A DNA stretch of 64,000 nucleotides, taken from an uncultured Bacillota bacterium. Lineage in GTDB: Bacteria > Sysuimicrobiota > Sysuimicrobiia > Sysuimicrobiales > Segetimicrobiaceae. The DNA lies in the NCBI GenBank assembly GCA_963804645.1, contig CAWDRG010000011.1, forward strand, positions 183,466 through 247,465. The letters run 5' to 3'. Both the position numbers and the translations under genes were made by a program. The notes below the pieces were generated by a model, which was given only the letters and a program-made list of their open reading frames with translations, ran no database searches and was not told where the DNA came from. Within the stretch, counting starts at the first letter, position 1, and each line of letters begins with the position of its first letter. This document shows, piece after piece, positions 2,796-64,000 of the stretch.

Positions 2796-4160
2796 ATGAA
2801 CTCGTCATCACCGCCGCGGGCGCCGCGTCCTCGCCCGCCATCTCGGTCAGGGACCTCCGACACGACTCGCACAACCGAGATCCGCCTGGTGTACCTCGCC
2901 GGCCTCATCCAAGGGCTGGCCTTGGTGACATTTCCGGCCGCGAGTTCCATCCTCACCAGCCCGCGGGTGTACGGCCTCAGTGAGACCCAGTACGGGGCGA
3001 TGTTCCTCCCGCAGGTTGCCCTGGCCATCGTGGCATCGGCCGCAGCCCCGGCGCTGGCGCGCCGGTGGGGGCTCAAGCGGGTGTTTCTATTGGGACTCGG
3101 CGCCAACCTGGCGTCGATGATGCTCTTGGCGGGAAGCCGACTGCTCGTGTCCTCGCCGGCCGTGGCGTACGGCGCGCTGCTGGTGGCCACCGGGGTGCTT
3201 GGAGGAGGGTTCGGCGTCACCGTCATGACGCTGAACACCTTCGCGCAGGAGTACTTTCCCGCCGCAGCCGACCGCGCGGTGCTGGCGATGAACGTCCTGC
3301 TCGGAGTTGGCACGACGCTCGGTCCGGCCCTCGTCGCCGTGTTTCTCGCGTTGGGCGCCTGGTGGCTGCTGCCGATTCTCACGGCGGCCGCGCTGCTCTG
3401 CCTCTTGGACATCAGCCTGCAGGCGTCGCTCACGCCCCACCCGCGGCCGACCGCCGACGCCGGAGGCCCCGCGCGATCTCCGGAGCGGCGTGCCGGCCGT
3501 CTCCCACGGCGGTTCTGGCTCTACGCCGGCGCCGTCCTGCTCTACGGCGTGATCGAGACGCTCTGCGGCAATTGGTCCACGCTGTACCTGATCCGTGAGC
3601 GACACGTGCCGACGCCGTCGGCATCACTCGCGCTAACGATCTTTTGGGCGATGATGACCCTGGGACGGGTCGGCGCCGCGTTCCTGTCGACCAGAATCGC
3701 CGCACGGTGGATCTATCTCGTCCATCCCGTCGTGATGCTGGTCGCGCTCCTGGTCGTGTCCCGCGCCACGACGACGGCCGGCGGCATCGCGGCGTTCGGT
3801 CTGGCGGGGCTCGCGTGCTCGGCCTTTCTCCCGTTGAGCATCAGCCTCGGAGGACAAGCGTTCTCGGATCTGACGGCGGTCGTATCGGGACAGCTGATCG
3901 CGTTCTATCAGATCGGCTACGGGATCGCGGCGTTCGGCGTGGGACCGCTGCGGATGGCGACCGGCGCCTCCCTCTCGACGATCTATGCCGGCGCCGCGGC
4001 GGCGGCCGCCGCGCTGGCCGTGCTCGCCGTGCGCATCACCGTTCGGCCGCCAGACGGCCGCTGGCGACGGCGGCCGTCGCCGATCGTCCGACACCCCCAA
4101 ACATCTGACCGTCGCGACGCAGCGTCCAACGCGCCCGACCCGCCTCGACGTCCCGCGTAA
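2796..4160 (+). CDS. MFS transporter
   Basis: About 12 hydrophobic segments, motif-A-like ALARRWGLKRV; start trimmed from the 819..4160 ORF. Confidence 0.85.
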   Translation: MNSSSPPRAPRPRPPSRSGTSDTTRTTEIRLVYLAGLIQGLALVTFPAASSILTSPRVYGLSETQYGAMFLPQVALAIVASAAAPALARRWGLKRVFLLGLGANLASMMLLAGSRLLVSSPAVAYGALLVATGVLGGGFGVTVMTLNTFAQEYFPAAADRAVLAMNVLLGVGTTLGPALVAVFLALGAWWLLPILTAAALLCLLDISLQASLTPHPRPTADAGGPARSPERRAGRLPRRFWLYAGAVLLYGVIETLCGNWSTLYLIRERHVPTPSASLALTIFWAMMTLGRVGAAFLSTRIAARWIYLVHPVVMLVALLVVSRATTTAGGIAAFGLAGLACSAFLPLSISLGGQAFSDLTAVVSGQLIAFYQIGYGIAAFGVGPLRMATGASLSTIYAGAAAAAAALAVLAVRITVRPPDGRWRRRPSPIVRHPQTSDRRDAASNAPDPPRRPA

Positions 4161-4274
4161 GAATCGCCCCCGGCACCGGGTTCCTCCCCGGCATCCCAAA
4201 TTACTATCCCGACCCTATAGGCATGCCAGGCCCGGATGGGTACGCTGATTGGAAATCGACACGCCGGAGACTGC

Positions 4275-4928
4275 ATGCCCACAGTTCAGAACTGCATGAT
4301 TGCCCGGGCCGTGGTGTTGCCCGCCGACGCCACCGTGGGCGACGCGGTCGCGCACATGCGCGCTGAGGCGGTCGGGCGTCTCTGCGTCGTCGATCACGAC
4401 CGGCTGGTCGGGATTGTGACGCGGTCGGATCTGATGGGTGTCCTGCCGAGCGCGCCGACGGCCGATGCCGCGGAGGCGCAGGCGTTCTGGATGACCCCGG
4501 TGACGGCTGTGATGACGCCTCGTCCGATCGTCGTGGGGCCGGCCACCTCGGTCGCCACGGCCGCCAGACTCCTGCAGCGGCACCGCATCCAGGCGCTGCC
4601 CGTCGTGGATCGTGGCGCGCTGGTGGGCATCATCACCACGCAGGACATCGTCGACGCCCTCGGTCACCATGTCGGCAGCGATATCCGCGGGGCGCAGATG
4701 TCGGTGGCACTCCCCAACGACCTGGCGGACCTGCATCGGCTCACGGACGCCCTGGTCGCCTTGAAGGACGTGCTGTTCCCGCTGGCGCTGACGGTGCGGC
4801 TCAGCAAACACGAACGGCTCGCCCGGCTGATCGTCGGGACTGCCGAACCGCTCCGGGTCGCGGAGGAGCTCGCCGCGGCGGGCTTCAAGGTGTCCGGGCT
4901 CCGCGCCGACCCGGGGGCCTCCGCCTAG
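4275..4928 (+). CDS. CBS-pair protein with C-terminal ACT-like region (AcuB-like)
   Basis: Two CBS repeats (LVGIVTRSDL, LPVVD..LVGIITTQDI); GGAGA RBS. Confidence 0.8.
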   Translation: MPTVQNCMIARAVVLPADATVGDAVAHMRAEAVGRLCVVDHDRLVGIVTRSDLMGVLPSAPTADAAEAQAFWMTPVTAVMTPRPIVVGPATSVATAARLLQRHRIQALPVVDRGALVGIITTQDIVDALGHHVGSDIRGAQMSVALPNDLADLHRLTDALVALKDVLFPLALTVRLSKHERLARLIVGTAEPLRVAEELAAAGFKVSGLRADPGASA

Positions 4929-5008
4929 CGACTCCGACGACGGCGAACGGCCGCGCGTCGACGGTCCCCCAAGGAATCCCGGCGCGGCCGCTCGAACCGA
5001 TCAGGATC

Positions 5009-5686
5009 ATGACGCCCCCCGCGACTCGCAAGCCGGCCAAAATCTCGGTCCTGCTCGCCGACGATCACGCGATCGTGCGCCAGGGAGTCAAGATGATCCT
5101 CACCGCGGAGCCGGACATCGAGGTCGTCGGAGAAGCCGAGGACGGCCTCCAGGCGATCGAAATGGCCCGAGAGTTAAAGCCGAACGTCGCGGTCCTCGAC
5201 GTCAGCATGCCCCGGCTCAACGGCATCGAAGCCATGCGGCAGATCCGCGCGGCGCTGCCCCAGACGCAGGTCCTCGCGCTCACGATGCACGCGGACGATA
5301 CGTACGTGTTCCAGTGCCTGAAGGCCGGCGCCTCGGGGTACGTGCTCAAGCGCGCCGCGGCGACCGATCTCGTCCAGGCTATCCGGGCCGCCCGCCGCGG
5401 CGAAGCGTTCCTCTATCCGGCCGTCGCGACGGCGGTCGTGGCCGACTATCTGAAGCGGCTGGAATCGGGCGAGGGACGGGAAGCCTACGACGGGCTCACC
5501 GAGCGGGAACGTGAGATCCTGACGCTCGTCGCCGAGGGCGTGACCAATCAGGACATCGCGCAGAAGCTGTACATCAGCATCAAGACGGTGCAGACGCACC
5601 GGGCGCACATCATGGAAAAACTCGGCCTCCACGACCGCACCCAGCTCGTCCGCTACGCGATCCGCAAGGGGCTCATCGAAGCCTGA
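5009..5686 (+). CDS. NarL/LuxR-family response regulator (NreC-like)
   Basis: REC motifs LADDH, VLDVSMP, LTMH, YVLK; HTH LTEREREIL...ISIKTVQTHRAHIMEKL. Confidence 0.95.
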   Translation: MTPPATRKPAKISVLLADDHAIVRQGVKMILTAEPDIEVVGEAEDGLQAIEMARELKPNVAVLDVSMPRLNGIEAMRQIRAALPQTQVLALTMHADDTYVFQCLKAGASGYVLKRAAATDLVQAIRAARRGEAFLYPAVATAVVADYLKRLESGEGREAYDGLTEREREILTLVAEGVTNQDIAQKLYISIKTVQTHRAHIMEKLGLHDRTQLVRYAIRKGLIEA

Positions 5687-49724: not shown

Positions 49725-51490
49725 CGGCGGCGCGCGACCCGTTCGCCCACCTCCACGACGAAGCCTACGCCGACGCCTACGCGACGCGGGTCGGCCCGCT
49801 GGACGCGGTCGCGATGGGCGGCCGGCGCCGCGTCCCGCTCGCCGGGGACTGGCGGTTCACGCCGGATCTGTTCGACGAGGGGCTGCGCCAGCGGTGGTTC
49901 GAGCAGGAGCCCCTGCCGCCGCGCGTGTGGACGACGCCGAGGGACTACGACCCGGATGGGGCAGACCTGGTGGCGGTGCCCTCCTGCTGGACGTGCGTGA
50001 AGCCCGAGTGGCGCTTCTTCGAGGGAGCCGGCTGGTACGCGCGGACGATCGACTGGACGCCGGCCCCGGCCGAGCGGGTCGTCCTGCGCGTGGGCGCGGC
50101 GAACTACGAGGCGCGGGTCTTTCTCAACGGCCGGTACCTCGCCTCGCACCGGGGCGGCTCCACCCCGTTCTTCGTGGAGCTCACGGCGCACCTCCACGCC
50201 GGCGCCAACCGGCTGCTGATCCAGGTGGACAACCGACGCCGCCCGGACCGCGTGCCGATGCAGCATTTCGACTGGTTCAACCACGGCGGACTGTACCGCG
50301 AGGTGGACCTGCTCGTGCTTCCCGCGGTGTTCATCCGCGCGTTCAGGGTATCGCACTGCCAGGGCGGCATCGCGGCGGAGCTCGTCGTCTCCGACCCGGT
50401 CTCGGGCACGGCGCACGTCGCCGTCCCCGAGCTCGGCGTGGAGTGCGCCGTGCCGGTGGTCGCGGGGCGCGGGGCCGCGACGATCCCGGCCGCGCCGGCG
50501 CTCTGGTCGCCGGCGGCCCCGCGCCTGTACGAGGTCGAGGCGCGCTTCGGCGACGACCGCGTCGCGGAGCGCGTCGGCTTCCGCGACATCACGGTGCGGG
50601 GCGAGGAGATCCTGCTCAACGGCCAGCCGCTCTTTCTCCGCGGCGTCTGCGTCCATGAGGACGATGTCGAGCTCGGCAAGGTCGCGACCGAGGCCGACCT
50701 CCAGCGCCGGTTCGCGCACGCGCGCGAACTCGGCTGCAACTTCCTCCGCCTCGCCCACTACCCCCACCACGAGCGCGTCGCCGAGATCGCCGACGCGGCA
50801 GGGGTGCTGCTCTGGTCGGAGATCCCGGTCTATTGGGCGATCGATTTTGCCAACCCCGACACCTACGCGGACGCGGAGAACCAGCTCCTCGAGCTGATCG
50901 CGCGCGACGGCAATCGGGCCTCGGTCATCGTCTGGGGCGTCGGCAACGAGAACGCCGATACCGACGCCCGCTACGACTTCATGTCGCGCCTCGCCGCGGC
51001 GGCACGCCGGGCCGACCCGACGCGGCTGGTCAGCGCGGCCTGCCTGATCAACCGCCAAACCTTTCGGATCGAGGACCGCCTGGCGGCGCGCCTCGATCTC
51101 GTGGGCATCAACGAGTACTTCGGCTGGTACGAGCCGGATTTTTCGGGCCTGGAGCGCCTGCTGGAGCACTCCCGCCCGGGCAAGCCGGTCGTCATCACCG
51201 AGACCGGCGCGGACGCGGTGGCGGGCCTCCACGGGGACGCGCACGAGCTGTTCACCGAGGAGTGCCAGGCCGAGGTCTACCGCCGCCAACTCGACTGCCT
51301 GGAGCGCGCGGCCTATGTCCGCGGGATCTGCCCGTGGATTCTGTACGACTTCCGGTCCGAACGGCGGCAGACCCGGTTCCAGCGAGGCGTCAACCGCAAA
51401 GGCCTGATCGCGGAGGACAAGGCGACGAAAAAGCTGGCCTTCCACATCCTCGCCGAGCGGTACGCCAGGATGGCCGGGCGCCGCACGTAG
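49721..51490 (+). CDS. GH2 beta-hexuronidase (beta-glucuronidase/galacturonidase-like)
   Basis: RLAHYPH, WGVGNE (acid/base), ITETG (nucleophile), NRKG (N-x-K uronate motif). Confidence 0.88.
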   Translation: MTAARDPFAHLHDEAYADAYATRVGPLDAVAMGGRRRVPLAGDWRFTPDLFDEGLRQRWFEQEPLPPRVWTTPRDYDPDGADLVAVPSCWTCVKPEWRFFEGAGWYARTIDWTPAPAERVVLRVGAANYEARVFLNGRYLASHRGGSTPFFVELTAHLHAGANRLLIQVDNRRRPDRVPMQHFDWFNHGGLYREVDLLVLPAVFIRAFRVSHCQGGIAAELVVSDPVSGTAHVAVPELGVECAVPVVAGRGAATIPAAPALWSPAAPRLYEVEARFGDDRVAERVGFRDITVRGEEILLNGQPLFLRGVCVHEDDVELGKVATEADLQRRFAHARELGCNFLRLAHYPHHERVAEIADAAGVLLWSEIPVYWAIDFANPDTYADAENQLLELIARDGNRASVIVWGVGNENADTDARYDFMSRLAAAARRADPTRLVSAACLINRQTFRIEDRLAARLDLVGINEYFGWYEPDFSGLERLLEHSRPGKPVVITETGADAVAGLHGDAHELFTEECQAEVYRRQLDCLERAAYVRGICPWILYDFRSERRQTRFQRGVNRKGLIAEDKATKKLAFHILAERYARMAGRRT

Positions 51491-51530
51491 GGAGAAGGAA
51501 CCGCCGCGCCGCGCCTGGAACCCCGACGCG

Positions 51531-52469
51531 ATGGCTCCCCCCGGTACTGAAGCACCCGCCCGACGCCCCCCGTCCTCGCCCGCGGGGGGCGTCGGCGCGT
51601 GGTCCGACCGCAACGCCGCCTACATCCTCATCGCGCCGACGCTGCTTGGCGTCGTGCTGGTGGATCTCTATCCCCTGTTCTTCAACACGCTGATCAGCCT
51701 CGAGGAATGGAAGATCAGCAGCCCGCACCCGACCTACATCGGGCTGGCGAACTACGCCGCGGTGCTGCGCGATCCCGAGGCGCTCCACTCGCTGTGGGTC
51801 TCCGTGGTGTTCACGGTCGCGTCGGTGGCCGGGTCGTACGCGATCGGGCTCGGGCTCGCGCTGCTGCTCAGCCGGCCGATGTGGGGGCGCGGCGTGCTGC
51901 GCGCGGTGTTCATCGTCCCGTGGGCGATGCCGGCGTTCGTCGCGGCGCTCGTGTGGGGCTGGATGTACAACGACCAGTTCGGGATCCTCACCGCGATGGC
52001 CCACGACGTGGGTCTCCGTCATCCGCCGATCTTCCTCTCCGCGCCCCACGCCCTGCAGTCCCTCATCGCCGTGATGATCTGGAAGAGCTTCCCCTTCCAG
52101 TTCGTCGTGCTGCTCGCGGGGCTGTCCGGGATCGACAACGAGATCCTGCGCGCCGCGGAGGTGGACGGCGCCACGACGTGGCAGCGGTTCTGGCTGGTGA
52201 CCTTTCCCCTCCTTCGACCGATCTCGATGATCGCGGTGCTGCTTGCCGCGATCAACGCGTTCCAGTACTTCCCGATCCCGTGGATTTTGACGCAGGGCGG
52301 CCCCGCGAACGCGACCAACGTGGTCCCGATCGCCGTGTACAACACCGCGTTCCTCGCGGGAGACTTCGGCTCGGCGGCGGCGATCGCCACGCTCATGTTT
52401 CTCTTCATCCTAGCGATGGGCGCGGTGTACCTTTGGCAGTACATCCGCGAGGTCCAGTCAATTGGGTAG
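51531..52469 (+). CDS. Carbohydrate ABC transporter permease
   Basis: RAAEVDGATTWQRF..VTFPLL, LTQGGP. Confidence 0.93.
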   Translation: MAPPGTEAPARRPPSSPAGGVGAWSDRNAAYILIAPTLLGVVLVDLYPLFFNTLISLEEWKISSPHPTYIGLANYAAVLRDPEALHSLWVSVVFTVASVAGSYAIGLGLALLLSRPMWGRGVLRAVFIVPWAMPAFVAALVWGWMYNDQFGILTAMAHDVGLRHPPIFLSAPHALQSLIAVMIWKSFPFQFVVLLAGLSGIDNEILRAAEVDGATTWQRFWLVTFPLLRPISMIAVLLAAINAFQYFPIPWILTQGGPANATNVVPIAVYNTAFLAGDFGSAAAIATLMFLFILAMGAVYLWQYIREVQSIG

Positions 52470-53307
52470 CGCCCGCGCGCGACGGACGGCCGCCGACACC
52501 GCAGCGTTCCTCGCCGTGGCGGCCCTCGCGGTGGTCGCGCTGTTCCCGTTCTACTGGATGCTGCGCACGGCGTTCACGCCGCAGGCGGACGCCTACTCGC
52601 TGCACCCGACGGTGTGGCCGGGGGCCGTCACCTGGATCAACTTCGTCCGGGTCGTCACCTCCCCCAACATCCCGTTCGTGCAGTACTTCAAGAACAGCCT
52701 GATCGTCTCGGCGGCGACGACCCTTCTCGTGATCCTCGCCGGCTCCTGGGGCGCGTACGCGCTGGCGCGGATGGACTTCCGGGGAAAGAACACCTTCGGG
52801 ATCACGCTGCTCATCATCCAGATGTTCCCCCCCGTCGTGCTGCTGATCCCGCTGTTCCTGGTGATGGCGCGCCTGCATCTCGTCGATACCTACCTCGGGC
52901 TGATCCTCGCGCTCGTCACGTTCAATCTGCCGTTCGTGACGTGGCTGCTGCGCGGCTACTTTCTTGGCCTGCCGAAGGAGCTCGAGGATGCGGCCCGGAT
53001 CGACGGCTGCGGGCGGTTCGGGGTGCTGTTCCGAATCGCGCTCCCGCTCGCGGCGCCTGGCGTCGCGGCGGTCGCCACGCTGTCCATGGTGAACTCGTGG
53101 AACGACTTCCTGTTTGCGTTTGTGTTGATCAACAATGATGCCCGCAAGGTGCTCGCGACCGGACTCGCCTCGTATGGAGCCTCGAACAACGACTACACCG
53201 CGCTGTTCGCGATGGCGACGCTGACCACGGTGCCGATCGTGGCGCTGTTCGTGCTGTTCCAGCGGTATCTGGTCGGCGGGCTCGCCGCCGGCTCGGTCAA
53301 GGCCTGA
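52462..53307 (+). CDS. Carbohydrate ABC transporter permease
   Basis: PKELEDAARIDG, WNDFLFA, FQRYLVGGL..GSVK. Confidence 0.93.
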   Translation: MGSARARRTAADTAAFLAVAALAVVALFPFYWMLRTAFTPQADAYSLHPTVWPGAVTWINFVRVVTSPNIPFVQYFKNSLIVSAATTLLVILAGSWGAYALARMDFRGKNTFGITLLIIQMFPPVVLLIPLFLVMARLHLVDTYLGLILALVTFNLPFVTWLLRGYFLGLPKELEDAARIDGCGRFGVLFRIALPLAAPGVAAVATLSMVNSWNDFLFAFVLINNDARKVLATGLASYGASNNDYTALFAMATLTTVPIVALFVLFQRYLVGGLAAGSVKA

Positions 53308-53497
53308 CGCGGGGTGCGGGTGACGGACGGCGTACTGGGGGAGCCCGTCCGGCTATCGGATCGCCGCCCGATGGCAGCCGCCGGGGGACGTTTCGTACCA
53401 TGTGTGGGGGTGGGTCCCTAGGCAGGCGCTCAGCGTCGGGCGGTCGGGCATGCGTGCATCTAGAAACGATCCGATCGGCACAACGGGAGGGGATGCG

Positions 53498-54817
53498 ATG
53501 TCGACACGCGCTCGTTCACGGAGAAAATTCCTCAAGGACTCGATCGCATTGGGACTGTTGGCTCCGGCGGCCGCGGGCCTCGCGGGTGCGGCCGCGCCCT
53601 GGCGCGCGGACGCCGCGGGAACCACACCGCTCGGCTTTTGGAGCCGGGAGAACTTCAACAACGGCGCCCGCGAACCGCTGCTCAAGGACCACTGCGCGGC
53701 GTTTGACCGGAGCCACGGAACGTCCACGGACATCGAGTTCATGGTCTTCCAGGAGTCGATCGCCAAGATGCTCGCCGCCATCACGGCCGGCAATCCTCCG
53801 GAGGTCGGGGAGCAGGGACCGGACGTCGGCACGCAGTTCGCCGCCTCCGGCGCTCTGATGGACCTCACGCAGGCCGCGCGCGACCTGGCGCCGACCTTCC
53901 TGCCCCTGCAGCGGGATGCGTACGTGACCTACCAGGGCAAAGTGTACGGCCTCCCGTGGTACAACGAGACCCGCGTGCTCTTCTATCACCGCGACCTGCT
54001 CGACCGAGCGGGCGTCCGCCCTCCCACGACGTGGGCCGAGTGGACGGCCGCGGCGCAGAAGCTGACGACCGCCGACCAGTTCGGGTGTGGGATCGCGGTG
54101 GAAGGCACGTGGCCCGGCCAGATGTGGATCCCGCTCGGGATCTCGAACGGCGGCCGCGTCATCGACAAGACCGGCAAGATCGCCTCCGACAGCCCGGCGA
54201 TGCGGGAGGCCCTGCAGTTCGTGACGGACCTCTACCTCAAGTACAAGGTGGCGCCGCCCGCGACCCCGACGTACAAGAACAACGACGTGGTGCAGCTGTT
54301 CCTCTTGAAGAAAATCGCGATGTTCTGGTACAACGGCGACCTGCTCCAGACGATCGAAGCACAGAACCCGAACCTGCTGCAGAACGTCGGCGCGGTGGTG
54401 ACCCCGGTGAACCATGCGGGGCAGACGAGCCGCTCGTTCCTCGGCGGGTTCGACCTATTCGTGTTCCAGAAGTCCGCGCACCCGCAGCTCGGGTTGCAGC
54501 TGCTGCAGTGGATGTACGATCCGGGGTGGTACACCCAGTTCGTCGTCTCGACCGCGGCGTCTGCCCTCCCGGTCGTCAAGTTGACCGCGAGCGCCGACTT
54601 CTACCAGCAGAACGATGCGCGGAAGGCGCTCGTGACCCAGCTCGCGACCGCCGTGCGCTACGGAGGCCCGGACTGGGGGAACACGCCGTGGACCGGTGAG
54701 GCCGAGGGCAAGTTCCTGTTCAGCCAGCCGATGGTGGACGTGATGAACGGGAAAGGCACGGTCGATCAGGCGATCACCAACATGACGTCGGCGCTTCGGA
54801 CCCTCGCGAAGCAGTAG
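53498..54817 (+). CDS. Tat-exported sugar ABC substrate-binding protein
   Basis: SRRKFLK, GKVYGLPW, LFYHRDLL...PPTTWAE; GGGAGG RBS. Confidence 0.9.
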   Translation: MSTRARSRRKFLKDSIALGLLAPAAAGLAGAAAPWRADAAGTTPLGFWSRENFNNGAREPLLKDHCAAFDRSHGTSTDIEFMVFQESIAKMLAAITAGNPPEVGEQGPDVGTQFAASGALMDLTQAARDLAPTFLPLQRDAYVTYQGKVYGLPWYNETRVLFYHRDLLDRAGVRPPTTWAEWTAAAQKLTTADQFGCGIAVEGTWPGQMWIPLGISNGGRVIDKTGKIASDSPAMREALQFVTDLYLKYKVAPPATPTYKNNDVVQLFLLKKIAMFWYNGDLLQTIEAQNPNLLQNVGAVVTPVNHAGQTSRSFLGGFDLFVFQKSAHPQLGLQLLQWMYDPGWYTQFVVSTAASALPVVKLTASADFYQQNDARKALVTQLATAVRYGGPDWGNTPWTGEAEGKFLFSQPMVDVMNGKGTVDQAITNMTSALRTLAKQ

Positions 54818-54890
54818 CCGTCAACCGCGCGGGCGGCGCGGTGAACGAAACGGCAGGCCGACGTGCGGACGATGCGGCGGTCACGAGGTG

Positions 54891-54928
54891 AGACCGGCCG
54901 GCGTTTGCCACCGCGCCGGCCGGTCTTT
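54891..54928 (+). terminator. 13-bp stem-loop after the sugar operon
   Basis: AGACCGGCCGGCG / CGCCGGCCGGTCT followed by TT. Confidence 0.55.
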
Positions 54929-55056
54929 CGGCGACACCCGTCCGCGGTCGCTTGGGGCGAGCGGGAACAGGTCGCGATAGTGCTGCACGGTGATGCTCGA
55001 GCCATGATGACCCCCTCCTTCCCCGATGCGCGGGAGATCCGGACCGGAGCGCCCTG

Positions 55057-55807
55057 ATGCCGAACACTCTACACTCAGCCCTTCCGGGTCCGATTCGACG
55101 AGTGCGGGCCTGACGGGACTGCGCGAAGCGCGACCATCCTCCGCTACGCCGCCGAGACCGCCTTCGCGCATTCGGCCGCGGTCGGCTTTCCGCTGTCGTG
55201 GTACCTGACACACGGGCTCTTCTGGCTCGTGCGGGACGCGCGCGTGGACCTCGCGGTCCCGGTGGAGCACGCGGCGACGCTCGAGGTCACCACGCAGGTC
55301 GTCGGCGTGCGCCGGGTCTGGGCCCGTCGCGTGAACGCGGTCCGCGATGCCGCGGGCGGCCGCGTCGGCACCGTCACCATGGATTGGATTCTCACCGATA
55401 CCAACGGCCGCCCGGCGCGCATTCCGCCGTCGATGCTCGCCGCGTTTCCCATCCCCCCCGGCGACCTTCACCGTATCCAGGAGGAGGCCACGCCGATCCC
55501 CCCGATCGGCGCCCTCACCGGGCGGCATAGGGTGTTCGCCCACGAATGCGATCCCCGCGGACACATGAACAACGCCGTCTACCTCGACTTGTTCGACGAC
55601 GCGCTGGCTGCGCTCGGGATCGATCCGCAAGCACGTCCCGTCAGCTACACCCTCGAATATCTGAGGTCGGCCCGATCGGGAGAGACCGTGGAGTACGCGG
55701 CGTGGAACACCGAGGCGGGCGCACGCCTGGTTGCGCAGATCCCGGACGGACCCGTCGTGTGGCGAGCGCACCGCCGGTCGACCGCGTGTCCCCCATGCCC
55801 CCGCTAG
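55057..55807 (+). CDS. Acyl-ACP/acyl-CoA thioesterase (double hot-dog); extra base near the start
   Basis: FRVRFDECGPDG in frame upstream of the 55229 ORF; ECDPRGHMNNAVY; ATG 55057 with GGAG is one base out of frame. Confidence 0.8.
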
Positions 55808-56058
55808 CGAGCAGGCGCGCGTACGGCGATTGGCGGAGCGCCGAGTCGCCGCGCAGACCGTGGTGTTCGCCGTCGTTGGCGTGGGCGCAGCCCCGACCGT
55901 GCCGTCCCTTAGCGGTGCGGCGTTCATGCGCCTGTCGGGCCTGACCAGTTTCGCCGACTGGGTCGCCTCGCGTGGACGCGGTGGCGCCGGCGGCAATGGT
56001 CGCACGCGCCGCCGGCACCGAGGCCCGATCTCCAGAGCGGCCCCCGCCGCTCCGCCGC

Positions 56059-57075
56059 TCAGAACGGGATGTCCATCTTCAACTCCAGGACGTCCTGGCC
56101 GAGCTGCACGTTTGGCATCGACAGCGTCGCGGCGGTGGTGAGCGGCGGCCGAGGCACCGGCGCAAAGACCAGGATCCCGTGGACGCTGCCGTGCGCGGGC
56201 ACGCGATCCGGGAGCGTCGTCTTCAAATCCTGGAGCGCGTAGGAGTTCCCGGAGGCATCCCGCAGGACGGTCGCGGGCTTCGCGAAAAAGAGATTGGCCT
56301 CCACATCCGAGTTGTTTTCGACAGTCACGTCTGCAGACGTCGAGTCTGCGGCGAATTCCACCCGCGTCAGGGTCATGGCCAAGGGGCCCGACGCGGTACG
56401 CAGGGCCGTGGCATAGGTTCGGACCGTCGTCGTCGGCGGCGCGGTCTTGGCGGACGCGTCCTTCACGAGCCCACAACCCACGTGGATCGCCGGCAACGCC
56501 CCCGAATCATCGGACAGGCCGTCCACCGTCAGCATGAACTGATCGGTCTTCGGATCGGGCGGCTTGAAGTACACCGAACCTGTCCGCGCCGCGCCCGGTG
56601 GAATCTCGGTCACCGTCCAGATGGTGTCGTCGATGTGCTTCACCAGTGCGGCCCGCGCTTCCGTGGTCGCCAGGTAGCCGGTTAGCCCGAACGCGAGGGT
56701 TCCCACGATGACTTGTGCGGTATTGGAGAACATATTCTTCGCCTGTGCGGCCGTGAGCGGAACCGCTTGCTCACCCTGGTCGGTGATGAGCGTGATCTGG
56801 TTGGGGTCGTCGTGAATCGTTCCGTCGGCGGTGCTCCGGAGTACGAGCTCAATCTCGAGCACAACCTGGGGCACATGGGGAACGAGCGACAAGGTCAATG
56901 GACCCGAGTGTCCCACGCACCCCCTCGGCGGGGCACTCGCGGGCTGGGCCATCGCGGACGCCGGGATCATGAGGAGCACGACCGCAAGGGCGGTCGCCGC
57001 GCGGCGCCGTCCTCCCCGCCAGGCCGCGGCGGCCTTCCCGAGATCCACCCCGGTGCGCGTTCGAGGACGTCGCAT
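56059..57075 (-). CDS. Hypothetical secreted protein with two beta-sandwich-like repeats
   Basis: Signal-like hydrophobic stretch; repeated EIPPGAARTGSVYF / RVPAHGSVHGILVF. Confidence 0.7.
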   Translation of the reverse strand: MRRPRTRTGVDLGKAAAAWRGGRRRAATALAVVLLMIPASAMAQPASAPPRGCVGHSGPLTLSLVPHVPQVVLEIELVLRSTADGTIHDDPNQITLITDQGEQAVPLTAAQAKNMFSNTAQVIVGTLAFGLTGYLATTEARAALVKHIDDTIWTVTEIPPGAARTGSVYFKPPDPKTDQFMLTVDGLSDDSGALPAIHVGCGLVKDASAKTAPPTTTVRTYATALRTASGPLAMTLTRVEFAADSTSADVTVENNSDVEANLFFAKPATVLRDASGNSYALQDLKTTLPDRVPAHGSVHGILVFAPVPRPPLTTAATLSMPNVQLGQDVLELKMDIPF

Positions 57076-57197
57076 GACGGGGGGTATCCCCCTTCCGGCC
57101 GGCGAAGGTTCCGCGCGTGAACCGTCCGATCCGGCGGACCCGCCGTGGCTGCTGACCGACCCTTGGCGCCCTCGTAGGGGTAGCGTGCGACTCCGAC

Positions 57198-57213
57198 TGT
57201 GATGTGCATCACA
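57198..57213. promoter_or_regulatory. CRP-consensus palindrome TGTGA-N6-TCACA
   Basis: TGTGATGTGCATCACA in a divergent intergenic region. Confidence 0.5.
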
Positions 57214-57424
57214 CTGCGCCTTCGGGGTCGAGCCGCCGGCCGCTTGGAGGGTTCGACGGCCGACCCGGATATCCTAGGCTGTCTTGAGGGGGCCCAAGGC
57301 GTCCAAATCAACAGCGAAGCGCTCGAGGGCAGTTGTGTGATCGAGATCGTAGACGGTCTTTCCGAGTACGACGAGGATGTGAGAAAGATCGCAACTGGAG
57401 CTTGATCCGGAGGAGACTAATACT

Positions 57425-58540
57425 GTGAGCAGGGGGGCCTCGATGTTCATTTGGCGGCTTCGTCGCTTCAAGGCCAACCGGAGGGAAGGACTGTTCCGTA
57501 GCCACTCACGACCCGCAGGCGGAGTGATCTTCCGCCTCACGCGTGCCCGCCTTCTCGGTTGGGCGGTCGTGGTGCTTCTGACGGTCCATGCGGGCGCGCT
57601 CGGCGGGTCTGCGCAAACGCCTCCGGCCCCGCCACCCGGGGCGGCGTCCGCCTCCGGGCCCCAAATCTACGTCACGGACTTCGACAATAACCGGATCGTG
57701 CGCATCGATGATATGACCGGCTCGGGTTGGGTCGCGTTGGGCAGTCTGGGTCCGGGGACGAACCAGTTCCATGAGCCGACCGGGATCTCCGCCGATCCTT
57801 CAGGGCGGATCGTCGTGGCGGACAGCTGGAACGACCGGGTGGTCCGCGTCGATGATATGACGGGGCATGGATGGAAGGTCCTGGGGACACACGGCAGCTT
57901 CTTGACCGGTGGTATGTTTCTTAGCCCGCAGGGCATCGGCACGGATCCGGATGGGAACATCTATATGGCCGATGCGCACTGCGTGTGGCGGATTAACGCG
58001 GCGATGAGCGGGGGGCTGCTCGCGGGCAAGTGTTTCCCGATCAAACAGTACTATCTCGTGCCTCAGAGAAGTCCGTACCCTGTCACGGCGGGAGGGCTGG
58101 CCCTCGACGAAAAGGGTCGCATCTACCTGACAGACAAAGACCAGGGTCGCGTCGCCCGCATCGACAACAGCAACGGCGGAGGCTGGATCGCCGTGGGAGC
58201 GCAGGGGACCGGTGCGCTGCAATTGAACGGCCCCCGCGGCGTCGCAGTCAATTCGCTCCGCATCTACGTGGCCGACTCCGGCAACAACCGGATCGTGCGA
58301 ATGGATGACATGGCGGGCAATGCGTGGACGACGTTCGGCACCCAAGGCAGCGGCGTCAACCAGTTCAGCACGCCAACTGGCGTTGCCGTGGATGCACGCG
58401 GCAGAATCTATGTGGCCGACTCCGGCAACAACCGCGTCGTCCGCATCGACGACATGACCGGGGCCGGATGGACGACGCTCGGCACACAGGGGACCGGCGT
58501 CAATCAGTTTGGCAGACCGTTTGGGGTCTCCGTTCGCTGA
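57425..58540 (+). CDS. Secreted NHL-repeat beta-propeller protein
   Basis: Repeated NQF..P.G...D..GRIYVADSGNNRIVRIDDM. Confidence 0.88.
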   Translation: MSRGASMFIWRLRRFKANRREGLFRSHSRPAGGVIFRLTRARLLGWAVVVLLTVHAGALGGSAQTPPAPPPGAASASGPQIYVTDFDNNRIVRIDDMTGSGWVALGSLGPGTNQFHEPTGISADPSGRIVVADSWNDRVVRVDDMTGHGWKVLGTHGSFLTGGMFLSPQGIGTDPDGNIYMADAHCVWRINAAMSGGLLAGKCFPIKQYYLVPQRSPYPVTAGGLALDEKGRIYLTDKDQGRVARIDNSNGGGWIAVGAQGTGALQLNGPRGVAVNSLRIYVADSGNNRIVRMDDMAGNAWTTFGTQGSGVNQFSTPTGVAVDARGRIYVADSGNNRVVRIDDMTGAGWTTLGTQGTGVNQFGRPFGVSVR

Positions 58541-58744
58541 GCCGCCCGTTGCGTCTCGAGATCAGCGCGTTCCGCGCCAGGGCGTGCCAGCGCCAACGCG
58601 GCTGCTAGGTCAGGCGTAGGTTCGGGTTGCCGCCGCTGCGTGGATCTCGAGTTCTTGGAAAGTCGGCCGCGCGGCTCCGGCGGCACGCCGCACTGATTTA
58701 AATTTAGGAGATCCGCGTCACCACGCGATCCTGGAAGCGAATCG

Positions 58745-59200
58745 AGGGATAGGCGCGGTCTCGAAGCGCTCGGTGCCCCGTGGATCGGACTGCGTGGGAC
58801 GCAGATGGCTCCCGAGGCGATAGAAGGCCGCGGCGGAGCCGCGGTACCCGCGCGCCCAAATCTCGTTCAGGATCCGACTACCGATGCGATGCTGCTCCGT
58901 CGTCATCTGTTGGATCAGCGCGACGAACGGCGCGAGTTGTTGATTTTCTGTTGGTTTACGCTGGTAGCGCGGAGGCTCAGGACTACCCAGGGCGGGACGG
59001 TCTGACGAGAGAGGCCCAGTTCACGCGAAATGCGGCGGACGGAATGTCCTTGCGCATGCAACTGACGAACGGCGGCCCACGCTTCCATTGACAGCATCTC
59101 CTCCCCCCTTCACCCCAGTCTTGGAATGAGGGATTCGATGCCTCAGGAGGTGGTCAACTTTTGCAGAGAAACCCGGGCAAGCTTTCAACGAGAAACTACA
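58745..59200 (-). mobile_element. IS21-family remnant (left end plus broken istA N-terminus)
   Basis: Minus strand begins TGTAGTTTCTC with repeated GTTTCTC..AAAG..TG.CC units; HTH QGHSVRRISRELGLSRQTV; RGYRGS and RFETAP, then truncated. Confidence 0.7.
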
Positions 59201-59279
59201 GCGGTTGCGGAAGGGTGCCGAGAAGGTTACCTATCAGATTGTACTCGGATATTGTAAGAGGCCAACTACGTCGCGGAGT

Positions 59280-59620
59280 TCAGTCCTGCTCAGGGAAGTT
59301 GACTTGAAAACGCTCACACACCACAGACATTTCAGAAGTGGGTGCTCGTCCGAGAGAACGACATTCTTGTGAGTAATACTCCCACATGTCCTTACGCCAC
59401 CAATTCATTGAGCGGTCGCCCTCGCCATAATCGTACACGAACCCCTTATCGACCGCTTTGAAGGGCACCGTCCTCACTTCGATCGTCTCAATGACACAAA
59501 GGGGTGCTCCGTTCCAATTGGTGACGATGCTCAGGTCCCCCACCTGTACAAGAGGCTTTCCCTTAACGTCGTACTCCCACAGCAGTGCTGAGGTTGCCGT
59601 CTTGATGCGCCTCACAACTA
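59280..59620 (-). pseudogene. ASCH domain protein, N-terminus cut off by IS insertion
   Basis: LVVRRIKTATS, GEGDRS..WW, VVCERF; no start before the CTAG junction. Confidence 0.85.
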
Positions 59621-60786
59621 GTGTCCTGAGTTAGAAATATCTTCCATTGGACATGGGATGGTGCTATGGTGAGAGAAACTCCCGCCGGAGGATCTCCCAT
59701 GCCCCGTGGCCGTGCCTTGGCACCCCTGACCCTGACGGTGGAGGAGCGAGACACCCTCGAGCAATGGCTGCGTCGCCGGAAGACCGCGCAAGCCTTGGCG
59801 CGACGGGCTGCGGCAGTCCTGGCCGCAGCCAACGGGGTGTCCAACCAAGACGTGGCCGCGAAGCTGCACCTGACCCCGTGGACGGTGGGCAAGTGGCGGC
59901 GACGCTTTCTGGCGCACCGGTTGGACGGGTTGTTGGATGAACCCCGTCCCGGCGCGCCCCGCACGATCCAGGACGCGGATGTGGAGCGCGTCGTGGCGCT
60001 GACATTGGAGAGCGCCCCACCAGATGCGACGCACTGGAGCACCCGGGGCATGGCGCGGCGGACGGGCATGAGCCAGAGTGCCGTCAGCCGGATTTGGCGG
60101 GCGTTTGTGCTGCAGCCGCACCGGAGCGACACCTTTAAGCTTTCGCGCGATCCGTTGTTCATCGAAAAGGTGCGCGACATCGTGGGCTTGTATTTGAACC
60201 CCCCGGATCAGGCTTTGGTCGTGTGCGTCGATGAGAAGAGCCAGATCCAAGCCTTGGACCGGACGCAGCCGTTGTTGCCGATGCGGCCGGGGCAAATTGA
60301 ACGGCGAACACATGACTACATGCGCCATGGGACCACGTCTCTGTTCGCTGCCCTGGAGGTCAAGAGCGGGAAACTGCTGGGTCAGTGTCGGCAGCGTCAC
60401 CGCTCCACAGAGTTCCGCGCGTTCCTTCGGCAGATCGAGACGGCGGTCCCGGACGGCCTGGAGGTGCATCTCATCATGGATAACTACGGGACCCACAAGA
60501 CGCCGCTCATCCACCGCTGGATGGTACGGCATCCACGCTTTCATGTGCACTTCACTCCTACCGGCGCCACCTGGCTCAATTTGGTGGAGCGATTTTTCGC
60601 CGCGCTCACTGAAAAGCAACTCCGCCGGGGCGTCCACCGTAGCACCCGTGAGCTTGAAACCGCCATCTACCATTACATCGATCATCAGAACCAAGCTCCC
60701 AAGCCCTTTATCTGGACCAAAACCGCCGATCAAATCCTGGCGAGCGTCGCCAGATTTTGTGAGCGAACTTTTGACTCAGGACACTA
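59619..60786 (+). mobile_element. Complete IS630-family element
   Basis: IR TAGTGTCCTGAGT / ACTCAGGACACTA, CTAG at both ends, intact transposase. Confidence 0.95.
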
Positions 60787-60787
60787 G
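59699..60787 (+). CDS. IS630-family DDE transposase
   Basis: [28 protein letters not shown]; stop codon lies in the right end. Confidence 0.95.
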
Positions 60788-62254
60788 TATTACAAAGTCA
60801 CATTACCAGCAGGACTTTGGCTACGCCTGTGGAATGGAGATAGCGAGCTCAGCATATATCGCACCTCTCGTCGCAGCAGACGTCGTTGCCGCGGGTGTCG
60901 CCGATGGTCACTTCGCCGCCCTTCACCGATCCCGCCCTGCGCCAGCGTTTCGTCGAGTACGTGACAGCCGTCCTCCCGGACCTGGGCCGCAAGGATCGCC
61001 AGCCGTGGGCGGAGGCCTATGTGCGCGGGTTGCTGCTCGAAGGCGAGCGCAAGTCCATCGAGCCCATGGCCAAGCGGTTGCCCGACGGGAATGTCCAAGC
61101 CTTGCAGCACTTTATTGGAAAGAGCCCGTGGCCCTATGCGCCGGTCCGCCAACGGGTGGCGGGCGTGCTGTGTCCGGACATGGGCCCGGGGCTGTGGATC
61201 GTGGATGAGACCGGCTTCCCCAAGCAAGGCACGCAGTCCGTCGGCGTGGCGCGGCAATACTCGGGGACGTTGGGCAAAGTCGCCAACTGCCAGGTGGCGG
61301 TCAGCCTGCATCACGCCACCGCGACGGCGAGTCTGCCTGTGGATTGGGCGCTGTTTCTGCCGGAGGAGTGGACGCAGGATCCGGATCGCTGTGCGGCCGC
61401 GGGCGTCCCCGGGCCCGTCCACCACCAGCCCAAGTGGCGCCTGGCCCTCGACCTGATTGATCATGCCCGCACCTGGGGCCTGGCCGATCAACGGGTGATT
61501 GCCGACGCTGGCTACGGCACGATCGCGGAATTCCGGGCCGGGTTGCGGGCGCGGCACTTGCCTTATGCTGTGGGCGTCGAATCGGGCACCGGCGTGTGGA
61601 CACGCCGACCCCGACGGCGCCGACGGCCCAACCCCGGACGCGGACGACCACCCACGCGCTGGGACTACGGCGGCCAACGGCCGCCCAGTGTGGGGGACGT
61701 GGCCCGCGCGCTGCCGGCCGCCGCGTACCACACCGTGACGTGGCGGGAAGGGAGCAAAGGGAAACTCACGTCGCGCTTCGCCCGGGTCCGAGTGTGGCCC
61801 TCCCACGGGTACCACGCAGGCAAGCCGCCGGAAGACGAGCAATGGCTGCTCATTGCATGGCCCGCGGACGCCGCCCAACCGACGAAGTACTGGCTCGCCA
61901 CCGCCCCACAGCGCATCTCGTTGGTTCAACTGGTCCGCTGGGCCAAGGCGCGCTGGCGGGTCGAGCAAGATTACGCGCAACTCAAGGATGACCTCGGGCT
62001 CGATCACTTCGAAGGCCGCCGCTGGCTGGGCTGGCACCATCACGTCACCATGACGACGATGGCCTACGGGTTCTTGATCCGGGAGCAACTCCGGCACCGC
62101 GTCGGAAGGGGAAAAAAACGGCGCGCGTCCCCACGATCCCCCAGGTCCGCGCGGAACTCCAGTACCTCCTGAAAACGTGGACAGGATACTGCATCGTGTG
62201 CGGCCAACTCGTCCCCGGCGCGATCAAAGATGACTCATCCTAGACATGACATAG
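60784..62254 (+). mobile_element. IS701-family element; right IR interrupted by the group II intron
   Basis: Left end CTAGTATTACAAAGTCA; right inner end TGACATAG abuts the intron 3' end. Confidence 0.8.
60904..62172 (+). CDS. IS701-family DDE transposase
   Basis: VDETGFPKQG..SVGVARQYSG.LGKVANCQ, ADAGYG, RWRVEQDY, GLDHFEGR.W.GWHHH. Confidence 0.95.
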   Translation: MVTSPPFTDPALRQRFVEYVTAVLPDLGRKDRQPWAEAYVRGLLLEGERKSIEPMAKRLPDGNVQALQHFIGKSPWPYAPVRQRVAGVLCPDMGPGLWIVDETGFPKQGTQSVGVARQYSGTLGKVANCQVAVSLHHATATASLPVDWALFLPEEWTQDPDRCAAAGVPGPVHHQPKWRLALDLIDHARTWGLADQRVIADAGYGTIAEFRAGLRARHLPYAVGVESGTGVWTRRPRRRRRPNPGRGRPPTRWDYGGQRPPSVGDVARALPAAAYHTVTWREGSKGKLTSRFARVRVWPSHGYHAGKPPEDEQWLLIAWPADAAQPTKYWLATAPQRISLVQLVRWAKARWRVEQDYAQLKDDLGLDHFEGRRWLGWHHHVTMTTMAYGFLIREQLRHRVGRGKKRRASPRSPRSARNSSTS

Positions 62255-64000
62255 GTCGAGTAGGACCAGCGATCGCTCGCTGGGACCCCTCTGCCGAACG
62301 GCTCGTACGGATCTCCCGTAAGCCGCTCTACCCCATGCCGACTCGTGAGTCATCAGGAATATATCCGAAGAGAGTGGAGCCCCAGACGGCGGTAGAAGAA
62401 TGTTTCAGAGTATCGCCGCCAGTTCGCCGTGCGCCAGCGTTTGGCCATGAAGGCCCGCAGCCTCCGAAGGATCCAGCGGTCCAGCGGCCTCCCGATCCGT
62501 CGCAAGTCGCCAATCCGGAAGAATCGTCCCCAACCGCGGAGCACTGGATTTAGCAGCGCCACGATCTCGTCCGCCCGACGCGGTTGGTTACGCCGCGTAA
62601 GATGACGGACCTTGTCCCGGAGCCGCTGTATTGCTCGCGCCCGTGGCTGTAGGTGCAGTCCCTCCTCATCGCGCCAGAAGCGGAATCCAAGGAACTCAAA
62701 TCCTTCCGTAATGTGAACGACCCGCGTCTTCGCAGGATGCAGTCGCAGTCCCAACTGCCCCTCCAGAATCTGGTGGACCTGCTCCAAGGCCGCCTCGGCG
62801 TCCTCGCGCGTTCGGCACACGATGACACTGTCATCAGCATACCGGACCGCGCGATGTCCTGCCGCGAGCATCTGATGATCGAAGGTGTTCAGAAACGCAT
62901 TACTGAGCAGCGGCGAAACTACACCCCCTTGCGGGGTGCCCGCTACCAGGGTACGCTTCTTGCCCTCCTCCATCACCCCGGCCTGGAGAAACGCCTGCAC
63001 GAGCCGGAGAATCCGCCCATCCGCCACCACCTCGGCGACTGCGGCCAGCAGCCGCGCATGGGACGCGGTGTCGAAAAACTGTTCAATATCGATTTCGACA
63101 ATCCACTCGCCCCCGTGATGCAGGCTCGCCATCACATCGCCAATGGCCTGATGCGCTGACCGTCCTGGACGAAACCCGTAACTGGTCTCCGCAAACCGCG
63201 GCTCAAAGTGCGGTTCCAGCCGCAGACGCATCGCCTGCGCCACTACGCGATCTCGTACAGCAGGGATCGCGAGGCCGCGACGACGTCCATCGGGTTTGGG
63301 AATGTAGACGCGACGCCCGGGCTGGGGCACATAGGCATCGTCCTTGAGGGCCGCCTGGAGTCCTTGCAACTCCTCATCCAAGTGTGCCTCAAATGCCTCA
63401 AGGCTCTGACCATCCACGCCCCACGTCCCGTGGTTCGCCTTGACCAGCGTCCAGGCCCGCCGCAGATTCGGCAGGTACCAGACCTTGTCGATGAGCGAGC
63501 CGACCTTGATCGGATGCACGTCCTCCGCCACTCCTCCTCCATCCTGACCAGAGTCCTGTTGGTCGGGGTCTGCACCGGTCGCGGCTCGGGAGCTGCTCAT
63601 GACAGAGATCCCTTACCCCGCGCTCGTCAAGCCGATCCCGCCTTCAGGCCACCAAGCATGGAGCGGGTCCCTTCGCTCTGCCAGGTTTCCCTGACCTCAT
63701 CGCTACGTCTGGACCCGTCCGACTCCTGAACGTGCATCGGGTTGGCTTTTCCCCTTCCGGGTTATACCGTCCCTACCTGTCCGCGCAGGACCGAACCCTA
63801 CTCGCGACAGGACACGCTCAGGCCTCCCCGGGTCATGCTGCTCTCTGTCCCACCATGCTGCCCGCACCCACGACTGATCCCCCCTGGTCTTCTCTGGATG
63901 CCCCTTCCTCCAGTACTAGCAGAGTCGGGCCTCCAGGGGTTCGCGCCGACCGGTTCGCCTGGCTTCGACAGCCTCGGCTGCGGCCTGGTGGTTTGCCTCA
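62255..64000 (-). mobile_element. Group II intron (IIB-like, AGC triad); 5' end beyond window
   Basis: Domain V GAGCGGCUUACGGGAGAUCCGUACGAGCCGUUC (62296-62328), domain VI hairpin, terminal ...CUACUCGAC; DI-DIII-like sequence upstream of the ORF. Confidence 0.92.
62353..63600 (-). CDS. ltrA: Group II intron reverse transcriptase/maturase, no endonuclease domain
   Basis: GVDG, IPKPDG.R.L.IP..RDR, SYGFRPGR, GTPQGG..SPLL, YADD, LNPVLRGW; start uncertain. Confidence 0.95.
   Translation of the reverse strand: MSSSRAATGADPDQQDSGQDGGGVAEDVHPIKVGSLIDKVWYLPNLRRAWTLVKANHGTWGVDGQSLEAFEAHLDEELQGLQAALKDDAYVPQPGRRVYIPKPDGRRRGLAIPAVRDRVVAQAMRLRLEPHFEPRFAETSYGFRPGRSAHQAIGDVMASLHHGGEWIVEIDIEQFFDTASHARLLAAVAEVVADGRILRLVQAFLQAGVMEEGKKRTLVAGTPQGGVVSPLLSNAFLNTFDHQMLAAGHRAVRYADDSVIVCRTREDAEAALEQVHQILEGQLGLRLHPAKTRVVHITEGFEFLGFRFWRDEEGLHLQPRARAIQRLRDKVRHLTRRNQPRRADEIVALLNPVLRGWGRFFRIGDLRRIGRPLDRWILRRLRAFMAKRWRTANWRRYSETFFYRRLGLHSLRIYS

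Follow-up and report, generated by a model that had tools for sequence, protein, structure and literature searches.

A group II intron whose guide sequences match the inverted-repeat tips of an insertion sequence of the IS701 family

Results

The intron splits one end of an IS701-family element

The DNA analysed here, referred to throughout as the window, is a 64,000-nt stretch from an uncultured Bacillota bacterium that forms the end of contig C11 in an assembly of 22 contigs (5.3 Mb, 68.6% G+C). Its last 4.4 kb consist of three nested mobile elements, an IS630-family element, an insertion sequence (IS) of the IS701 family and a group II intron (Table 1), and it is the relation of the intron to the terminal inverted repeats (IRs) of the IS701 element that concerns us. 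The intron is 1858 nt long and on the minus strand its 3' end, ...GTCCTACTCGAC, lies at 62255 and is followed by CTATGTCATGTCTAGG. As a preliminary description of this DNA had pointed out, the first bases after the intron, CTATGTCA, match CAAAGTCA of the IS701 left IR (60793-60800) at 6 of 8 positions. Contig C11 stops at window position 64000, inside the intron, and the window holds intron nt 113-1858; the 5' junction for this copy was taken from contig C22 and from other copies, the outer tip of the window's right IR (CTAGTATTA) being found on C22 on the far side of the intron. It is very likely, in our judgement, that this is a mobile group II intron without an endonuclease whose guide sequences are tuned to the IS701 tip and which homes into the IRs of such elements.

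A blastn search of the genome with the intron found two further full copies, on contigs C2 and C5, while C22 2662-2552 corresponds to nt 1-111 of a further copy. Read on the intron strand, with a caret at the junction, the 5' boundaries are ..GGGACACTAGTATTA^GTGTGCCC on C2, ..AAACCCTAGTACTA^GTGTGCCC on C5 and ..GCGGACCTAGTATTA^GTGTGCCC on C22, with exon tips CTAGTATTA, CTAGTACTA and CTAGTATTA respectively. In each of the three genomic copies an IS701-type IR is interrupted at CTAGTAYTA^C(A/T)A(A/T)GTCA; the 5' junction is CTAGTAYTA^GTGTG, and the inner IR forms the 3' exon, CTATGTCA.. or CAAAGTCAC.. The introns are 99.94-99.95% identical. Of their IS hosts, those on C11 and C2 are 98% identical, the C5 remnant is ~78-82% identical, and all of the outside flanks differ.

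The C22 piece stops at intron nt 111, where an IS21-family element begins (C22 1-2551; IstA NF033546, 246.5 bits; IstB NF038214, 263.7 bits), and the C11 piece begins at nt 113. The window's copy is thus most likely a single intron broken by the IS21 element at nt 111/112, and the assembly probably breaks at window 64000 because the IS21 element interrupts the intron copy there.

With the introns removed, the right ends of the IS elements (minus strand) read CTAGTATTA+CTATGTCATGTCTAGG on C11 and C2 and CTAGTACTA+CAAAGTCACATCTAAG on C5; the left ends are CTAGTATTACAAAGTCAC on C11 and C2 and CTAGTACTACAAAGTCAC on C5. So restored, the C5 right end agrees with the C5 left end over 18 bp without a difference, and the IRs of the window subtype match at 15 of 17 positions, by eye. 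An intact right IR of the window subtype is present in a metagenome locus, L025 (...CATATCTAG.. on the plus strand, reverse complement CTAGTATTACTATGTCA); this intact form equals CTAGTATTA+CTATGTCA, and therefore the insertion is exact. It lies 9 bp inside the outer IR boundary, or 5 bp if the CTAG that flanks both sides of every IS701 copy is a 4-bp target duplication; alternatively, CTAG may be part of the IR. Members of the IS701 family are cited with 4- or 5-bp direct repeats (in the part of PMC8024623 that deals with them), and the assignment of the host to this family follows from its DDE transposase, its terminal IRs and the flanking CTAG.

Guide sequences of the intron covary with its insertion sites

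The reverse transcriptase (RT) of the intron belongs to a clade whose members are 79-96% identical, the next relatives being at 54% or less. This close clade was recovered from metagenome contigs; a search of genome contigs with the single RT found no relative, and one with an RT alignment found only relatives at 36-53% and one 43-residue fragment at 63%. Guide sequences were compared across 33 metagenome loci of the clade, with intron DNA 80-100% identical.

The hairpin CUCUG-C-UAGUAC-UGGAG is present at 63924-63908 of the minus strand as first described, and its loop had been proposed to hold a 6-nt exon-binding site 1 (EBS1), UAGUAC. The identity of this EBS1 is borne out by covariation: the loop hexamer varies together with the last six bases of the 5' exon, 18 of 21 distinct combinations pairing at 6/6 with 11 different EBS1 hexamers in use, and L029 pairing at 5/6. 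In a cross-paired control, where each EBS1 was set against exons of other types, the mean was 2.35 of 6 and 3% were fully paired. The proposed length did not stand. A seventh base, nt 201, pairs with exon position -7 in 19 of the 21 combinations, with four different bases, and therefore EBS1 is effectively 7 nt, UAGUACU, its partner being the AGTAYTA of the IS701 IR tip.

A scan of all alignment columns against the first base of the 3' exon singled out nt 245 as EBS3. It is Watson-Crick complementary to exon position +1 in 17 of 18 loci, all four bases being used, and in the present intron is a G facing C. When domain I was folded, as the preliminary description had suggested, the consensus placed EBS1 in a terminal loop and EBS3 in an internal loop. 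A search for EBS2, made with 5-nt windows over the first 560 nt, found none that varies in step with exon positions -7 through -17; at best 4 of 19 sequences fitted. Position -8 is T in 19 of 21 combinations and -9 is a pyrimidine in 18 of 21, these positions facing the invariant G202 and G203.

Several relatives (among them L029, L041 and L046) have T-runs at -7 to -10, which might belong to terminators, to repetitive extragenic palindromic (REP)-like repeats or to the ends of another element. L035, L036 and L037 share the EBS1 AUCCCAA, and their insertions lie in one or the other arm of a single palindrome (ATCCCAAAAC..33 nt..GTTTTGGGAT^AGGTTTT); the 5' exon of L035 is the reverse complement of that of L036.

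The target rule selects IS701-type ends in the genome

The 9-mer CTAGTAYTA occurs 8 times in the 5.3-Mb genome, always at an IS701-type end, one occurrence being the reverse reading of a palindromic end; it is clear that the match is far beyond chance. The core GTAYTAC alone has 500 sites. Applied to this intron, the clade-wide target rule (a pyrimidine at -9, T at -8, the 7-nt intron-binding site 1 (IBS1) and IBS3) reads YTAGTAYTA^C. Of the four unoccupied sites that obey it, three are left IRs and the fourth is a solo IR, at C5:29849; together with the three occupied sites they make 7 in the genome, all of them IS701-type ends. No further determinant is needed to account for the insertion pattern.

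Copies in other DNA occupy the same point

In metagenome locus L024 a right IR is occupied, with yet another flank, while L026 is the same as the C5 locus. Locus L025 has an occupied left IR, its 3' exon being the IS left end (CAAAGTCACATTACCAGCAGG...), and the right IR of the same IS copy is intact; the 3' junction reveals a left-IR insertion irrespective of the origin of the 5' flank, a matter taken up in the Discussion. On a contig from a public DNA run, X1, the 5' region of the intron is followed by the tip and then by bases that match window 60736-60765, in the IS630 end next to the left IR, exactly in reverse complement; here the left IR of the window itself is seen in its occupied state. 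The left IR had been predicted to be an empty target, and these results agree: the site is unoccupied in the window, filled in X1 and occupied at the equivalent end in L025.

Among related genomes, one of the same genus (G010) has one junction, ..GCTACTAGTACTA^GTGTG, and one of another genus of the family (G014), with an intron 82% identical over 102 nt, has two, ..GCGTTAGTATTA^ and ..GTACTAGTATTA^; the G014 intron is assembled to nt 102 only, short of EBS1. These three junctions all end in (C)TAGTAYTA. A further genome, G011, has 4 intact TAGTACTACAAAGTCA sites and contains the intron only as a 151-nt fragment. The 5' junction foreseen in the preliminary description, GTAYTA^GTGYG, is thus seen in the three genomic copies, in L024 and at the three junctions of the two related genomes, GTGTG following GTAYTA each time; in L025 the exon ends in GTAYTA as expected and the intron starts with GTTTG instead. 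Copies with this EBS1 were found only in IS701-type IRs (this genome, L024 and L025, and the X1 contig), one of them a left IR, which is what had been anticipated of their flanks. Taken together the junctions indicate repeated, independent insertion at the same point in differing IS copies.

A contig from another run, X5 (depth 3.4), skips 325 nt in domain I of the intron (L107 2844-3170); it could be a derivative with an internal deletion, or else a relative.

Anatomy and relationships of the intron

The 5' end is GTGTG in the C2, C5 and C22 copies, in keeping with the GUGYG hallmark of mobile introns. Domains V and VI fold with compensatory changes among 14 distinct sequences, as does domain I, and the bulged A of domain VI is 7 nt from the 3' splice site. 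The RT reading frame is open in all three genomic copies; for most relatives the annotation places the start 23 codons further on (392 aa). In Pfam the protein has RVT_1 and GIIM and no further domain, hence neither a DNA-binding nor an endonuclease domain, the lack of an endonuclease having been stated beforehand. The genome as a whole has 12 RT matches, of which three are the present intron and nine others, on C5, C10, C15 and C20, are 36-43% identical, and so it carries a heavy load of group II introns.

Compared with solved structures, the RT scores highest against 7uim (259.6 bits) and GsI-IIC (233.4), then TeI4h (159.7) and LtrA (138.6), and IIC RTs are thus the closest. The intron resembles group IIC introns in this, in having no detected EBS2, in its EBS3-type recognition and in the T-runs that often, and the inverted repeats that sometimes, lie just 5' of the insertion point in its relatives. 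It differs in several respects. A CGC triad in domain V is typical of IIC introns, whereas the triad here is AGC; L040, where CGC replaces AGC, is the only such relative among the sequences folded. Folding found no hairpin in the 5' exons of the IR-targeted copies (z-scores +0.6 to +1.7), whereas IIC introns are described as sitting after terminator motifs or other inverted repeats (PMC1702495), and EBS1 has its full length of 7 nt, part of which is absent from IIC introns according to the passages of PMC3753933 that treat them. On two counts the intron does not look like a member of class D, the lineage of RmInt1 and RmInt2: EBS2 is undetected, and the C-terminal motif of that class, quoted in PMC4615759 as LX3AX3PXLF[V/A]HW, was not seen by eye in the C-terminus ...FFYRRLGLHSLRIYS, no profile having been used.

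The IS701 element and its other neighbours

A run of seven A (window 62114-62120) is found close to the 3' end of the gene for the IS701 transposase, and the DNA downstream, a tail that might be read by slippage, is conserved in another frame. A frameshift of the transposase at this run was considered and rejected: A7 and the same reading frame are common to the three close IS701 copies, and the family profile is fully covered before the run. The C5 remnant has A8.

On C5 (L104, C5 300800-313000) a diverged IS701-type left part occupies C5 301322-302612. Beyond it lie the RT of another group II intron, unrelated to the present one (L104:2077-3447, minus strand; TIGR04416, 331 bits), an ISL3 transposase and a PEP-CTERM protein, and only after these genes comes the intron-bearing right end. 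The possibility that this is one IS with an 8-kb insertion was rejected, as the interval holds unrelated genes; the intron-bearing piece is better described as a right-end remnant of ~190 nt. Two solo right-end remnants, one on C5 and one on C17, end at an A/T run common to both.

The IS630-family element of the window is inserted exactly within the TA of the CTAG that terminates the IS701 left end, and its removal gives the pre-insertion sequence ..CACAACTAGTATTA. On C2 a 111-nt miniature inverted-repeat transposable element with IS630-type IRs lies in the terminal CTAG of the right end (L105/C2 216305-216415). Both full-length IS701 copies of this genome therefore have an IS630-type element in a terminal CTAG, and the IS701 tip appears to attract such elements as well as the intron. 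In L025 a repeat of ~1.34 kb (3880-5221) adjoins the intact right tip of the IS701 element, with copies 91-99.9% identical on C1, C21, C15, C17, C19, C13 and C9.

Table 1. Mobile elements and their parts in the last 4.4 kb of the window
Feature	Position	Strand	Remarks
IS630-family element	59618-60787	+	inserted in the TA of the terminal CTAG, IS701 left end
IS630-family transposase	59666-60787	+	NF033545, 265 bits
IS630 element IRs	59617-59636 and 60769-60788		
IS701 left IR	60784-60801	+	CTAGTATTACAAAGTCAC = CTAGTATTA^CAAAGTCAC; unoccupied target, insertion point between 60792/60793
IS701-family transposase, 428 aa	60886-62172	+	DDE_5 4.7e-85 (Pfam); NF033540 431.8 bits vs cutoff 150
3' exon (inner part of IS701 right IR)	62239-62254	-	CTATGTCATGTCTAGG
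Group II intron	62255-64000	-	nt 113-1858 of 1858
RT/maturase, 415 aa	62353-63600	-	RVT_1 1.3e-40, GIIM 3.4e-17 (Pfam); TIGR04416 391.5 bits vs cutoff 300
EBS1 UAGUACU, intron nt 195-201	63912-63918	-	terminal loop of hairpin 63924-63908; covariation and fold
EBS3 G, intron nt 245	63868	-	internal loop of domain I; covariation and fold
Domain V, 33 nt	62296-62328	-	AGC triad, 2-nt bulge; consensus fold, 14 distinct 3' ends
Domain VI	62258-62291	-	GCGA loop, bulged A at 62261; same consensus fold as domain V

Discussion

We propose the following course of events. EBS1 UAGUACU with AGTAYTA, EBS3 G245 with C, T at -8 and a pyrimidine at -9 together spell YTAGTAYTA^C, that is, the outer end of the IS701 IR including the flanking or terminal CTAG. 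The intron ribonucleoprotein would reverse-splice into the IR tip between TA and C and, since the intron protein is without an endonuclease domain, cDNA synthesis would probably be primed at replication forks by nascent lagging-strand DNA. The IR site is present at both ends of the element, in opposite orientation, and therefore each IS copy offers two targets. All three genomic copies lie on the G-rich strand of their contigs (GC skew of the plus strand -0.016 to -0.039), a placement that agrees, weakly, with the insertion into the lagging-strand template described for the endonuclease-less introns RmInt1 and RmInt2 in PMC4615759 (passages on strand choice); a lagging-strand bias would account for one IR being filled and the other not in each IS copy of this genome. 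The insertion parts the outer 9 bp of the IR from the remainder by 1.86 kb. An IS copy with its IR so split is most likely no longer able to transpose, because transposition acts on DNA and RNA splicing cannot restore the DNA.

Several observations count against this interpretation. The 5' flank of L025 is that of C2 and the intron there begins GTTTG; the metagenome contig may have been assembled as a chimera across the repeat. The IS21 element interrupts the copy in the window itself, the link between C11 and C22 being drawn from the matching break points. The fit of EBS1 is poor in L028 (3/6) and in L050/L054 (2/6), and the preference at -8 and -9 could equally be G-U/G-C pairing, protein recognition or a terminator-like T-run, which cannot be distinguished here. 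Rfam matched no intron family at gathering score (50000-64000) or at an E-value threshold (62000-64000), and with the full copy gave only a sub-threshold hit to group-II-D1D4-4, which at 28.8 bits fell short of the gathering score, 49, and nothing for domain V/VI; since Rfam does not recognise it, the intron is atypical in sequence. Four public runs yielded no spliced joint and no empty-site joint across the intron, coverage of the locus in the RNA library being partial, and contigs of that library which match the intron are no proof of transcription. Furthermore, the strand argument is a weak one that concerns three copies and assumes the sign of the skew, and the actual disabling of the IS is something that we infer.

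It could be supposed that the intron entered one IS701 copy once, and that the composite of IS and intron then spread by transposition, duplication or recombination, with no ongoing homing into IRs. The unusual right-IR variant CTATGTCA common to C11, C2 and L024 would be consistent with this, as would L025, in which recombination among intron copies, or else a chimeric assembly, could have brought the C2 flank together with another IS end. However, the intron copies diverge by ~0.05% whereas the IS copies diverge by 2% and by ~20%, the host on C5 is another kind of IS701-type end, there is an occupied left IR besides, and the same junction is found in related genomes with other flanks; an element with a split IR should, moreover, not serve as a transposition substrate. 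We regard such a history as highly improbable. A different possibility is that the intron inserts widely at short EBS1/EBS3 matches and that only copies in harmless sites, such as IS ends, survive selection. In favour of it are the 500 genomic sites of the GTAYTAC core, the relatives with other EBS1 sequences that occupy unrelated sites sharing only ~8-10 bases (L031 versus L032; L041, L046 and L051) and the description of IIC-type introns as being of low specificity (PMC3753933, in its remarks on that class). Against it, the seventh EBS1 pair and the preference for T at -8 and a pyrimidine at -9 reduce the candidates to 7; as these are all IS701 ends, selection is not needed to explain the pattern, and we consider this explanation unlikely as well. 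Homing guided by EBS1 and EBS3 into the IRs themselves remains the explanation that we favour.

The preliminary description did not recognise EBS-directed targeting of IS ends as a known behaviour, and in this it was mistaken, such targeting having been published for RmInt2 and ISRm17 (PMC4615759, in its account of that pair). RmInt2 of Sinorhizobium meliloti GR4 is described there, and in the corresponding section of the review PMC5894124, as having seven copies, all in the IRs of ISRm17, with both IRs as targets; its authors note that two IR targets double the number of sites and guarantee one on the lagging-strand template, and they propose a restraint of the IS. ISRm17 is placed in the ISDol1 group of the ISNCY family (PMC10194956). 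The present intron resembles RmInt2 in being without an endonuclease, in having all of its copies in the IRs of one IS, in the use of both IRs in opposite orientation and in its EBS/IBS pairing. It differs in that RmInt2 is a class D (IIB) intron with a functional EBS2 and the class D C-terminal motif, neither EBS2 nor the motif being detected here, and in that the mobility of RmInt2 has been assayed whereas that of the present intron is deduced indirectly, from three copies at least 99.9% identical in hosts that have diverged. Furthermore, the present host belongs to the IS701 family, and no more than 9 bp separate the insertion point from the outer boundary.

RmInt1 of S. meliloti inserts within the transposase gene of its host, ISRm2011-2, where splicing could restore the mRNA; in contrast, the target here is an IR and is not restorable by splicing at the DNA level. 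The two are alike in being endonuclease-less and in having a multicopy IS, of the IS630 family in the case of ISRm2011-2, as natural homing site. RmInt1 is said to block the spread of its IS and to use the lagging-strand template, and its target is not called an IR site in the sections of PMC4615759 and PMC5894124 that concern it. A literature search at the level of titles and abstracts found no report linking group II introns to IS701 IRs. The strategy of targeting IRs is thus itself already published, the intron lineage and the IS family being what differs here, and we consider the finding moderately novel.

More tentatively, and with rather more doubt than confidence, these observations may be joined into one picture: a lineage with an IIC-like RT and without EBS2, having acquired a complete 10-position rule matched in this genome only by IS701 ends, might act as a brake on the IS at the DNA level that splicing cannot undo, and the IS701 tip might be a landing pad for three unrelated mobile elements.

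The case described here is a second, independent one of a group II intron homing into the terminal IRs of an IS, with the intron lineage, the IS family and the bacterial group all different, and it suggests that the strategy arises repeatedly and is not a Sinorhizobium peculiarity. The 11 EBS1 and 4 EBS3 variants amount to a natural retargeting table for a small intron without EBS2 or endonuclease. Finally, since the split affects the DNA of the IR itself, it can be tested directly whether introns are able to restrain the spread of an IS.

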